The notes beneath the pieces were generated by a model that was given only the letters and a program-made list of their open reading frames with translations, did no database searches and was not told the origin of the DNA. Position numbers and translations under genes: made by a program. Below, piece after piece: positions 2,756-8,303 of a DNA stretch of 64,000 nt (position 1 is its first letter; each line of letters begins with the position of its first letter). This DNA comes from Amoebidium appalachense (taxonomy: Eukaryota > Protista > Ichthyosporea): positions 1,795,449-1,859,448 of the forward strand of contig CAVNZM010000004.1 in NCBI GenBank assembly GCA_963693365.1. The letters are read 5' to 3'.

Positions 2756-3301
2756 TCACCCCTCCTCCTCCCCATCATCCACAATGCGCAGAGCAACTAC
2801 CCTGCGTGGGTCCTTCACACAGTGTTCAGATCGGCGCACAGACGTGCCAGGCGGTGCATGTGCCGTGTCAGAGTGTGTCTGCCAGTTGTCTCCTGCAGCC
2901 CTCACCACGTGCACACGACCAGGCATCACAAGCACCTGGGAGCCAATGGGTGGAGCAGGTTGGTTACTGTATATGGAAAGAATGTTTGGAGGCCAAAGCA
3001 CTACACACGTCCGCATGCTAGCACTAGTTCCGAACCCTCAACTTACTGGTTGGGAAATGATTTACGAATTTGATGGTGATGGTATCGTGTATGGAGCCAA
3101 CTTTTTTGTGGTGAAATAAAGTACAACATGGCAAGGATTGCTGCAAGTGCACATAGGAGGGCAAGTGGCACCCAATGAGAACTATCGCAAAAGTTCATAA
3201 ATTGGTTGCGTATTTGTGTTTGTTAGTGTGTTTGTTTGTGTGTGTGTAGGTGGAGGTGGCGGTGGCGGTGGCAGCGATGGTGGTGGTGGTGGGTAGTGGA
3301 A

Positions 3302-3343
<42 letters not shown>

Positions 3344-3578
3344 GGAGGAGACGAAACTATGGGGGACGCATGCATACCTCGATCAGCACATCGCCAAAGG
3401 CCTTTGCCTTGCTCCTATCCTCCGTCACATACACCCCCGGCCCAAACATCCCACCGGAACTGGGCCGGAATCCCTCCTGGAATATAGCCCGGGCGGTATC
3501 GTGGCTGGGAGTGCCGTGATACATGATGACAGTGTGGCAGCCAAATTGGGCACGGTGCCCACGACGACCACACGTGTG

Positions 3579-3636
<58 letters not shown>

Positions 3637-4440
3637 AGGGGGGGGGGGGGGGGGGTGGAGAGATGAGGAAGGAGGGGGGGGGGGGGCGGGGGGAGGAGGA
3701 GTGGGCGGAGGAAAGGTCAATAGACGGCAGGGGGCAAAGGGGGACGTAGGATGGTTATGTGAAGATAATCGGTGCCAGTTTGTGTCCAAACTGGGAAAAC
3801 AGGTGGGATGGGGGAGCGGGGAGAGGGGGGGGGGGAGGGGGGGGGGGGGGGGGGGGTGGCAGTTTTGGTGGGTAAGAGCAGTCACTTGAAAGTGATAATA
3901 TGAAGTGAGCGCTAGAAAACACTACTGGTGCTTGGGGGGTCAGCCCATCAGAAACTATGGGGTGGATTCGGACGTATCCACCGGTGGCGCCACGACGCAG
4001 CATAGCAGCCGTGGCGGTGCCTGTAAGTGGCATAAATTTATATGTTTGTGTGTATATTTATATAGTAATCATATTTATTATCTTATATATTTGCACTATA
4101 TTCATACTTCATAACATATATTCATAAAAATTATATAATTTTCATACACTATTAGCGCTTCGCCTCGATTTTGGAATTTGGCGCAGTGGCTCAGATCAAT
4201 CAAGCCAACCAATCAGACAGCAGGAAACTTTGGTCCGGGCGGCCCGGTATCGGTGCCCATGTCGCCATTTTCACCACCGGCGGATACGTCCGTATCCACC
4301 CCATAGTGAAGCAGAAAGATGGGTTCGTATGTGTGTGGGTGGGGGAAGGGAAATAGGGAGACGGTGTTAAAGGCCAGGGGGAGGGGGGCGGCGATGGGGG
4401 GACCGGAGGGAGACAGGTTGTGTGTGTGGGGGGGGCCCAG

Positions 4441-4471
<31 letters not shown>

Positions 4472-5289
4472 ACAGGGAAGAAACAGAGAGGGGGGGGGGG
4501 GGGGGAGGTTACTTGTGACGGCGAGTGGTGTGTGTGGTACCACCACACAGCACACAGGGGGGGTGACGATAAGCAGTCAGATGTTTTTCATCAGCACGGT
4601 AACACCCAACCCCATGCATGCAGGGGGGGCAGGGTAAAGCCCCCCCTCCTTCCCTACCTCTACCAAACCCTTCACCCCCTTTGCCCCCTTGCTGGTGACG
4701 TCACATTTTTCACTGTGTTCACCGGTCCCCGTGGCGCATTCCTTGCAGCACGTGGTGAACCCTTGCTTCCGATTTGCCGGACGGCGGCAACCAATGGCAG
4801 CACAGGGACGGAGGATCACGTTTCCTGTTGGGTGGGTGGCTGCATGCAGGCGGGAGGTACATTCCTCAGTGTGTGTGGAGGTACCTTCGGCACAGCCACG
4901 GCAGCAGGTCGAAAACCCACGGGGGTTGGCGCCCTGCAAATAGTCATTGACACTCGGTTGAGACGTGCATGTTTTGATCATAAATTTCTTTCTACCATAA
5001 ATGCCGTAGGGATGGACACTTTGGCATCCCCCTCCCCCCTCCCCCCCCCCCCCCCCCCCCCCCCCCCCTCTCTCCCTTCCTCCCCCCCTCTCTCCCTTCC
5101 TTCCCCCCTTCCTCCCTCCCTCCTTGGATGACTCTGAATAGAAACATCAAAAATTTGGGTTCCGTTGCTTAACAATGCCCAATCATTCTCAAAGCCCCTA
5201 GCCAGTGCAGTGGGTTTCCTCTTATCTCAAGCCCCCTCTCTCTCTCCCCCCCCCCCCCCCCCCCCCCACACACACACCCTTTTTTTTTT

Positions 5290-5339
<50 letters not shown>

Positions 5340-6654
5340 AGAGAGAGAGCCGGGAGGAGGGGGGGGGGGGGGGGGCTTGAGGTAAAAGCGAAAACCAAGC
5401 GCTTCTGCACATAGAGATAGGCAGTATGCGCGGATTGAGGAAGTAAGCAATGGCACGGGTAGTTGTACGTGAAGGCGGGGGGAGGGGCGTGCAGGCCGGG
5501 TTTGCCCGGGGGGAGAAGGGGGGGGGGAGGGGGAGGAGGTGGGAGGGGTGGGGGGGGGGGGGGCACACATACATGAGTAGTGTTTGCGGCCCGGCCACAC
5601 CCCATCAGGCACGGGTGGGCCCTTGCCACCCCCCTGAGTGTGTAGTAAGCATCAAACCCCCTCTTGATGAGTCTTTGGCCCCTCTTGCATGTGGCTGTGT
5701 GTGCCTCATCCCCCCCACACCCCCCACAGCATGTGGTGTGACCTAGGTCATAACGGGCTAGACGGGTGCAGCCCAGGTGGGAGCAGAGGGCGGAGATGGT
5801 GGTTGAATCGACGATTTGTGAGCGGCCAATGGGCTGCAAGGGATAAAAAATCAAAAAATAGGCCGGAATGGGGTTTGTGTTGAGGGTTGAAGATGAAGTG
5901 GGGGATAGAATTTGGATTAAAGCTGAATACCATATCAACATCACAGCTCCTATCACCTCTTTTCTTTTTATTTTCTAAGTTGCAGGGGGAGGGGGGAAGG
6001 GGGGGGGAGGGGGGGGGGGGGGGGGGGGGTTTAGTGGTTTTTTTTAGTATGAACTTTGTTCGGAGAAGTGGGAGGGTGGGGGGGGATTCTGATTGGAAGG
6101 CTGGGAGAGTGGTCCTACAAAATCGTCAACTTGGGTGTGTTTTTTTTTTTTTGGGAAGAATGGGGGGGGGGGGGGGGGGGGGGGGGGGGTGTATGTATTT
6201 GCGCGTTTGTGTGTGCGTGTGTGTGTTGGGGAGGCGGCGGCGGCGGCGGGCGGGGGGCCGGGGGGGGGGGGGGGGGGGGGGGAGAGAGAGGGGCGGAGTT
6301 GGGGGGTAATGGATGCGCATATTTCATACCTGGCTGAGAGCGGTCTGCAGGATTGAGTCTGTGTCTGTCCCCCAGCCATGCACCCGTGCCTCACACTTGA
6401 GATCGTGGCCCTGGTGGGTGGGACACACACGGCAGCAGTAGAGCCCATGCGGTGTGTTGGGGCTACGTGGCCTCTCACACCTGAGGAGTGGGTTAAACCC
6501 AGTGTTAGAAGGGTTAGAATGGGTTGAAGAGGAATGACACGGGAGGGGGGGGGGGGGGGGGGGGGGATGCGTAGATTGTAGATAAAGTGAGGGACGGACT
6601 TGGATTATGGGACTGTAAGGGCGGAGCAGGAGAGGAGGGGCGGCGGCGGTTGCG

Positions 6655-6687
<33 letters not shown>

Positions 6688-7306
6688 GGGGAGGGGGGAG
6701 GGGAGGGGGGGGGAGGATCAGACAATGGCAAGCGGCCGGAACGTGTTGGTGGTAAGCGTGAGAACAAAAGAAAAATGGGGGGGGAAGGGGGGGAGGGGAA
6801 GTGAGCTCAGGTCATGTGCAATAGGGATGTTGAGCACAACAAGAACTGGGGGAGGATAGAAGTCTAGTTCCAAAGCCTTCGCATGAGCCCTTTTTTAACG
6901 ACACTGTTACAGGTGATTATCCATTCCCCCCCCCCCCCCTCCCCCCACCAAAAAAAAAAAAAAAAAAACTCACACAAAAAAGAAACAATTTGCGACAACT
7001 TTAAAACGGAAAATCTTGAACGGCAATAGTTATGGCCTGTTGGTTGCATTGGCTGGTGCACAATGCTCATTACACGGTGATATAACATCAAACTTTAATC
7101 CTCTACACCCGTACGTTTAATGTGGTTTAGCCTGCTTTCCGCAAGGTTGTTGCTTTTAGTGGGGCCGTCCGGGAAAGGGGAGAGGGGAGAAGGGGGGGGG
7201 GGGGGGGGGGGGGGTCTTCAGCTGGAAAGCATTCCTACCATGTTCACAGGTGTGTTAGGGATACTAAGTCCTCACACATTTGGTCCTTTTCACTGGTTTG
7301 TCAAGC

Positions 7307-7337
<31 letters not shown>

Positions 7338-7874
7338 TTCTGGTAGGAATGCTTTCCAGCTGAAGAACCCCCCCCCCCCCCCCTCCTCCCACACAAAAAA
7401 AGAAAAAAAATAGATAAATGAAAAATAGAAAATAAAAACGTCTGCACAGGACACAGACACAGCCATCACTAAAACCTTCCCCCCCCCCCCCCCTCCCCCT
7501 CCCCTCCCCCCTCCCCCCCCCCCTCTCTCTTTACCACAAAAAGGAATAAAAAAAATTTAAAATGAAAAATGAAACGAGAAACAAAATAGCAGCAACAAAG
7601 AATAGCGAGAAGAAAAAGAAGAAGAAAGAAACAGAAAAGAAGAACGATGATGACCGTCTGAGTGTTTCTTCACAGCCACCCATTTCTAACGAACGAGTGT
7701 TGATTATAGTTTTCGTTATCGCGTTTTATTAACACTATACTCCACACCAGTGCAGCTCCGGCTAAAAACCGAGATACGATATAATCCCCCCCCCCCCCCC
7801 CCCCCCCCCCCCTCCCCCCCTCCCCCCCCCCCCCCCCAAAAAAAAAAAAAAAAAAGCCTGAGAAAGAAAGAAAA

Positions 7875-7913
<39 letters not shown>

Positions 7914-8303
7914 GACACAGAAAGAAAGAAAAATAGAAAGAAAGAAAGCCTAGAAAGAAAAAGGAAAAGAAAAGAAGAAGAAGAAGAAGAAGAAGAAGAA
8001 GAAGAAAAGGAAAAAGAACGAAAAAAATCTTGCCTAAGAGGCGTATAGAAGACGCAAGCAAATCCAAAACAAAAGCTCTGTTCAACCCCATACCCACCTC
8101 TTGCACACCCACTCAAAGTCTGCAGCCAGGCCCTTTTTACGTCTTGCCTCGGCCTTTTCCACCGCTGCCACACGGGCATAATGCCCCCTAGGCTGCCCCT
8201 TGCTGCTCGACACACCCACAGATATGCCTGCTCCCGGTGCCATGCCCTCAGGCGAGGGCGAAAAGGTTGGGTTTGTGTGGGAGCTCGATGAATTTCCCTC
8301 CAT
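2756..8303 (-). CDS. Gig2-like (PARP-fold, H-Y-E) ADP-ribosyltransferase with four N-terminal Cys/His repeats and a CCHC knuckle-like motif, ~434 aa
   Basis: Seven exons: 8303-8098, 6480-6330, 5833-5573, 4933-4658, 3911-3886 (26-nt microexon), 3582-3378, 2935-2756. All introns are GT-AG and phases are consistent (1305 nt). The C-terminus IMYHGTPSHDTARAIFQEGFRPSSGGMFGPGVYVTEDRSKAKAFGDVLIEVLVMPGRVHVV...DTAHAPPG...RSEHCVKDPRRV follows the Gig2 pattern MYHGT..GF..S.GGM.G.GVY...KA...DTA..PP...E.CV.DP.R. Confidence 0.8.
3954..4307. mobile_element. Non-autonomous DNA transposon (MITE), 354 bp
   Basis: 36-bp terminal inverted repeats at 3954-3989 and 4272-4307 (33/36 identical, ACTATGGGGTGGAT.CGGACGTATCC.CCGGTGG.G), flanked on both sides by GAA (3951-3953, 4308-4310), a candidate 3-bp TSD. 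The interior is AT-rich and non-coding. Confidence 0.75.
7215..7366. repeat. Perfect 26-bp inverted repeat, extended outward by a G-run and a C-run
   Basis: tcttcagctggaaagcattcctacca (7215-7240) is the exact reverse complement of tggtaggaatgctttccagctgaaga (7341-7366). Confidence 0.85.

Follow-up and report, generated by a model that had tools for sequence, protein, structure and literature searches.

A Candidate ADP-Ribose Reader-Writer Gene Carrying an Undescribed Cys/His Repeat in Amoebidium appalachense

In the present study, a stretch of 64,000 nucleotides (nt) of the ichthyosporean Amoebidium appalachense (contig CAVNZM010000004.1 of assembly GCA_963693365.1, positions 1,795,449 to 1,859,448; hereafter the window) was found to contain, on its minus strand, a spliced gene encoding four Cys/His repeats, a PBZ finger, two knuckle-like motifs, and a Gig2-like ADP-ribosyltransferase (ART) domain. 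The gene is real and expressed; its exons and four of its five junctions are observed, as are its domains and the intact H-Y-E positions of the ART. The reading that we favor, at a probability of approximately 0.45, is that a single protein of 474 amino acids (aa) acts as an ADP-ribose reader-writer, in which the PBZ finger would read poly-ADP-ribose (PAR) chains and the Gig2-like domain would write ADP-ribose. Gig2-like ART and PBZ domains are already known, their combination was found nowhere else here, and the repeat domain is the new part.

Gene Structure and Transcript Evidence

Introns are abundant in this eukaryotic DNA, which also contains long simple repeats. A sequence-only reading had placed a hidden, spliced GT-AG gene at 2756..8303, which is borne out by an open frame and by spliced contigs, while we were unable to reproduce its seven-exon model of ~434 aa. 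Six exons were obtained instead, running from an ATG at 8303, with an in-frame stop three codons 5' of it, to a stop at 2756, and separated by GT-AG introns of 1617, 496, 639, 930, and 442 nt (Table 1). The product reaches 474 aa with one extra G restored in exon 4.

Splice evidence was drawn from the contigs of eight public runs out of 24 listed. The run types are guesses, with X14 put down as RNA and X9-X12 as DNA, and no record was labelled RNA; since the joints in X9-X12 are exact introns, these runs were read as RNA. Four of the five junctions (8098/6480, 6330/5833, 5573/4933, and 3378/2935) were seen, in contigs from two studies, whereas junction 4513/3582, which leads from the repeats and PBZ to the enzyme half, was not seen in the eight runs. 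The loose ends of X14 contigs at 2939 and 4658 were taken as short chance matches.

In the assembly, a run of seven G residues (4623-4629) interrupts the frame of exon 4. An extra G behind 4622 was carried by all of the cover in X3 (34.1/34.1) and X11 (9.68/9.68) and by part of that in X1 (9.74/21.8), these runs coming from three studies; the five other runs examined had no cover there. A one-base assembly slip in the G run is the likeliest cause of the break, and a real one-base allele in the strain behind the window sequence is possible. A tiny intron at this point was excluded, as the X11 contig is unspliced across 4733-4516. The restored frame reveals the PBZ finger and a second knuckle-like motif, both absent from the earlier description; the PBZ had been overlooked because it lies beyond the break.

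Regarding junction 4513/3582, the acceptor at 3582 is the sole AG in the open frame ahead of YHGT and requires a phase-2 donor. Since the alternative phase-2 donors at 4552 and 4549 are read through unspliced by the X11 contig, 4513 remains as the donor, and 4513/3582 appears to be the only open-frame solution. The proposal that a Gig2-like ART is fused to unfamiliar repeats stands as to the domain and the repeats, with the joining junction deduced from the frame. We regard as improbable an arrangement in which two transcripts are made, one for a repeat-PBZ protein of 347 aa with a stop just behind exon 4 and the other for a short ART with M367 as its first residue, whose expression the repeat element in intron 4 perhaps drives. 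Such an arrangement would suit the missing junction, an X11 contig that stops at the edge of exon 4, a lack of cover at 3424-3582 in the spliced-run contigs, itself no proof, and a Met directly ahead of YHGT, as in the Emiliania Gig2-like open reading frame (ORF). However, both flanks of the junction adjoin masked repeats, the donor GTAACC and the acceptor CAG are phase-matched and unique, and their joining yields two tandem knuckles.

The element in intron 4 resembles a miniature inverted-repeat transposable element (MITE). Its read depth per bin in the DNA runs was 110-970 versus ~5-37 on the exons; it is present once in the window, and spliced-run contigs of other loci contain it as well. 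A candidate exon of 39 nt, in frame at 3982-4020, was rejected as it lies inside this element, where contigs continue into other loci.

The PBZ Finger and the Gig2-Like Domain

The PBZ finger was matched by Pfam PF10283 (25.7 bits, cut-off 22.7, E = 1.1e-5) and by the PBZ structures of APLF (E = 8.9e-7), with the C-Y-R motif kept. It is a Cys2-His2 finger in which His replaces the consensus Tyr/Phe after the first Cys and the leading Lys/Arg is absent. PBZ domains bind PAR, mainly in DNA-damage proteins, and occur together with a PARP domain in single proteins of Dictyostelium, Entamoeba, Capsaspora, and the lancelet (PMC4245714, PMC9404506, PMC5087659). The knuckle claimed previously is present in the spliced protein; knuckle 2 scored 13.9 bits against zf-CCHC (PF00098, cut-off 20.8), its final spacer being x5 where the consensus is C-x2-C-x4-H-x4-C.

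The C-terminal 105 aa (aa 363-467), split over two exons, form a Gig2-like H-Y-E ART domain, H-Y-E being the triad of the ARTD/PARP type (PMC8932523). Exon 5 scored 26.0 bits against Pfam PARP (PF00644, E = 7.6e-6, cut-off 26.7) and matched tankyrase chains at E = 0.011 with H369 and Y398 aligned, while E452 was placed by eye as the second Glu of the Gig2 motif E-E-x-C-V. The H-Y-E positions previously assigned to YHGT, GVY, and SEHCVKDP were confirmed as H369, Y398, and E452. According to a by-eye count over the whole unit, approximately 40 of 100 residues are identical to carp CauGig2Ia and Karenia KbrGig2, and the family-specific Gig2 C-terminal motifs are kept, as judged by eye, with no tool score, against three sequences in Table S1 of the Gig2 study (PMC3617106). 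The domain is predicted to be catalytically competent and to transfer ADP-ribose from NAD+, in either a mono- or a chain-forming manner.

No relatives of the ART exons were found in searches of protein, viral-contig, metagenome, phage, and plasmid collections; two loci that matched them were chance matches within bacterial genes. The gene had no match in NCBIfam and a single one in PHROGs, namely, that of exon 5 to phrog_6170 ("unknown function", E = 3e-5).

The Cys/His Repeat and Its Distribution

The four Cys/His repeats described earlier were recovered as four pattern matches, with the signature C-x3-C...T-C-C-x2-C...H-x3-C; at least one match to this pattern, which was derived from the same repeats, turned up in only three of 20,000 shuffles. 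No family in Pfam, NCBIfam, or PHROGs covers the repeat. A profile built from the four units of the window matched five proteins among 1.84 billion, with none in a word-indexed search and none in the PDB. An enlarged profile comprising the window units and those five proteins matched 156 proteins; by our own count, the best 120 of the 156 included 101 with PF12294 (DUF3626), eight with PF25972, one with a C2 domain, one with a calpain domain, and nine with no domain, a family size that is biased because the enlarged query contained one DUF3626 member. With the repeats masked, 122 proteins among the matches listed fell into six groups of 108, 8, 3, 1, 1, and 1, and the few named repeat-bearing members among these matches are dinoflagellates (Effrenium and Symbiodinium). 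The repeat is a mobile module, found in six further protein groups besides the window gene.

A total of 332 repeat units were extracted from the listed proteins using a pattern that required six Cys and one His, and, counted beyond these residues, positions G, G, R, T, and G were 87-98% conserved. Profiles built without the window sequence gave scores of 21-33 bits to window repeats 3 and 4 and of 4.5-12 bits to repeats 1 and 2, and these scores were alike with or without the largest family in the profile. A profile-profile comparison of the window and dinoflagellate repeats gave a probability of 96.5 and E = 7e-10. The predicted structure of a three-repeat homologue (P0028) had a pLDDT of 84.5 and little secondary structure, in which it would resemble small metal-bound modules; its best matches in the PDB were at E = 2.4 with Foldseek and Z = 2.6 with VIA, the latter mostly over residues 1-79, an absence of match that is no proof of a new fold. 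For the repeats of the window gene itself, structure prediction performed poorly (pLDDT 55). The repeat profiles matched nothing in viral contigs.

The largest group, of 108 proteins among the matches listed, combines EF-hands, DUF3626, and three Cys/His repeats. DUF3626 covers residues 178-338 of Salmonella SopF (PMC6682159), which is an ART with an I-Y-E triad (structures 7DN8 and 7DN9; PMC10333799) and requires Y224, Y240, and E325 for its activity (PMC11937434). A 23-member profile of the family matched 7DN8 and 7DN9 (E = 9e-4 and 4e-3), with the residues corresponding to Y224, Y240, and E325 kept, while single dinoflagellate proteins gave no match to SopF. The Glu motif is found in 96 of the 108 members and a CaaX-like C-terminal end in 21. 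This family is likely a calcium-regulated eukaryotic relative of SopF in which the NAD-binding residues are kept. In our literature search, from which subscription journals were largely absent, DUF3626 appeared only in Salmonella work, and SopF together with dinoflagellates gave nothing.

The presence of the repeat on two unrelated ART types, in two of the seven architectures including the window gene, is no more than a hint of a link with ADP-ribosylation. It may be speculated, as an unlikely idea, that the repeat is an undescribed ADP-ribosylation module, either an ADP-ribose reader or a targeting and activating unit, that was independently joined to a Gig2-type ART in the window gene, to SopF-type ARTs in dinoflagellates, and perhaps to giant-virus NADAR erasers, and that it marks a system of conflict over ADP-ribose in which microbial eukaryotes oppose their viruses. 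It is likewise unlikely, on our assessment, that the repeats act as a zinc-binding adaptor of general use, attached in many cases to calcium- or membrane-linked proteins, and that the window protein is a scaffold in which the ART domain is weak, acts as an NADase, or is incidental. The other partners of the repeat, which are EF-hands, C2, and calpain, the CaaX-like ends of the large family, and the deviations of the PBZ from its consensus point in that direction; the retention of H, Y, and E with the Gig2 C-terminal motifs, and the recurrence of a PAR reader beside an ART domain in other proteins (PMC4245714, PMC9404506, PMC5087659), point away from it.

Table 1. Features of the gene and of its fourth intron (window positions; all exons and motifs on the minus strand)
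Feature	Position	Content	Evidence
Exon 1	8098..8303 (-)	aa 1-69: start codon, low-complexity N-terminus (aa 1-66), opening residues of repeat 1	3' junction in runs X14, X9, and X11
Exon 2	6330..6480 (-)	aa 69-119: remainder of repeat 1 (aa 67-98)	Junctions in spliced contigs (6330/5833 in X14 and X9)
Exon 3	5573..5833 (-)	aa 120-206: repeat 2 (aa 136-168, 5687-5785), N-half of repeat 3 (aa 194-231)	Spliced contigs
Exon 4	4513..4933 (-)	aa 207-347: C-half of repeat 3, repeat 4 (aa 250-283, 4703-4804), PBZ, knuckle 1	5' junction in X12; donor 4513 inferred
Exon 5	3378..3582 (-)	aa 348-415: knuckle 2, ART N-half with H369 and Y398	3' junction in run X10
Exon 6	2756..2935 (-)	aa 416-474: ART C-half with E452, short acidic tail, stop	Junction in run X10
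G7 run	4623..4629	Probable one-base assembly slip concealing PBZ	Public runs with G8
PBZ finger, predicted PAR reader	4560..4622 (-)	aa 311-331	Pfam PF10283, APLF structures
Knuckle-like motif 1, C-x2-C-x4-H-x4-H	4515..4556 (-)	aa 333-346	Sequence only
Knuckle 2, C-x2-C-x4-H-x5-C	3537-3581 (-)	aa 348-362	
Catalytic positions	3516-3518, 3429-3431, 2825-2827 (-)	H369, Y398, E452, respectively	
MITE-like element, high-copy	3954..4307	Within intron 4; terminal inverted repeats of 32 bp, 2 mismatches	Read depth

Discussion

Considering the domains together, we favor the reader-writer as the function of this gene. PAR chains would be made by another PARP, the PBZ finger would bind them and thereby recruit the protein, and the recruited Gig2-like domain would transfer ADP-ribose from NAD+ onto nearby targets, with the repeats and knuckles selecting the partner or substrate. 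The four repeats are suggested to bind zinc and to choose the partner, substrate, or site. By analogy with other PBZ proteins, PAR binding by the finger is expected, and the setting would likely be PAR signaling in DNA damage or stress.

Several points weigh against this interpretation. The two deviations of the PBZ finger may make its PAR binding weak; the Pfam PARP score is marginally below the cut-off, and the ART fold is a prediction from sequence. The junction between the two halves of the gene is the one that the spliced contigs lack. Of the six other groups with the repeat, five (C2, calpain, PF25972, and two repeat-only groups) are without an ART, and the repeat may serve as an interaction module in general. 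No orthologue sharing the architecture of repeats, PBZ, and Gig2-like ART was found in the protein searches, and no assay of Gig2 catalysis was turned up by the literature search.

The sequence-only reading had seen a layout reminiscent of ZAP/PARP12 and an antiviral sensor-plus-ART role. ZAP/PARP13 and PARP12 are similar in having an N-terminal zinc-finger array, a PAR reader, and a C-terminal ART domain; the window protein differs in its ART type and in the lack of CCCH and WWE. The Pfam scan found neither a CCCH family (E up to 1 across seven exon pieces) nor WWE, for which the 474-aa layout has no room, and the ligand pattern of the repeats differs from that of CCCH. The likeness to ZAP and PARP12 does not hold in these respects, nor was the antiviral role supported.

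An antiviral or anti-parasite effector of this kind, in which the Gig2-like ART would be activated once the repeats and knuckles detect nucleic acid or protein of foreign origin, appears doubtful. Fish Gig2 genes are induced by virus and interferon, and one protects cells against virus (PMC3617106); antiviral defence has been linked to ARTs in some microbial eukaryotes, and NADAR erasers are encoded by giant viruses (PMC9503650). Patchy domain shuffling would suit conflict genes, and, in the viral fold search with the repeat model, giant-virus NADAR proteins took ranks 1, 2, and 5, all non-significant (E = 0.029, 0.041, and 1.4; TM <0.2). On the other hand, the sole recognizable reader is the PBZ, which is tied to PAR binding and DNA damage, no paralogue of the gene lies within the window, and transcription was seen in runs with conditions unrecorded. 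Such a role is compatible with the favored reading, as a PAR reader-writer could act during infection.

Gig2 proteins, as described in the 2013 study, are short and composed of only one, two, or four basic units, and the Gig2-like genes listed there include two algal and five marine ones, one with a Cys/His N-terminal extension (PMC3617106). The ART unit of the window protein makes up 105 of the 474 aa, follows other domains, and does not conform to "basic units only"; as it is one part of a multidomain protein, we class the domain as Gig2-like and place the gene outside the strict Gig2 family. It shares with CauGig2Ia, KbrGig2, and EhuGig2 a minimal ART unit with the motifs M-Y/F-H-G-T, G-G-M-x-G-x-G-V-Y, D-T/A-A-x-x-P-P, and E-x-C-V-x-D-P, and with KbrGig2 of Karenia brevis also a Cys/His stretch ahead of the ART, while those are stand-alone or tandem units of ~150 aa in contrast to a 474-aa protein with a PBZ, two knuckles, and four repeats (PMC3617106). 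PBZ-bearing PARPs (PMC4245714) and APLF (PDB 2kqb) have the same type of reader, in the PARPs on the ART chain. However, the window ART is of the 105-aa Gig2 type rather than a full PARP domain and has undescribed repeats in front, and its PBZ differs from that of APLF by the His in place of the first aromatic residue. The dinoflagellate EF-hand and DUF3626 family bears the same repeat on a chain with an ART-type domain, which is unrelated in type; its three repeats are C-terminal, and EF-hands replace the PBZ. The ART of NEURL4 is presumably kin to that of Gig2, and no paper linking the two was found in the literature search. NEURL4 has a non-PARP H-Y-E domain that ADP-ribosylates in vitro (PMC8932523).

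Other Features of the Window

Exons at ~45950-46800 (+) contain a NUDIX-like motif, by eye like those of ADP-ribose pyrophosphatases, with no Pfam match in two pieces. Other genes are a D-cysteine desulfhydrase-like pyridoxal phosphate enzyme (named by eye) from 10833 (+), a G-alpha subunit from 18241 (+), and an RGS-domain protein in a single long exon at 51757-54243 (-). At 386-1593 (+) lies the 3' portion of a convergent gene, presumably RWDD1-like and acidic in its tail, with no Pfam match in two pieces. Both copies of an inverted duplicate (60039-60425 and 61014-61400, 95.6% identical) encode a short, Cys-rich protein that begins with a signal-peptide-like segment and is internally repeated; the copy scanned had no Pfam match. 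At 63543-64000 (+), a Trp/Gly/Asn-rich and Cys-rich ORF with a signal-peptide-like stretch and no Pfam match begins and is cut by the window end.

Conclusion

The repeat is a compact, well-predicted, and unannotated domain with more than 300 example units, and tracing it brought to light a large family of eukaryotic relatives of Salmonella SopF. Gig2 protects fish cells from viruses, and the window protein offers a tractable assay subject. The occurrence of a Gig2-type domain with a predicted PAR reader would tie this type of enzyme to poly-ADP-ribose signaling.

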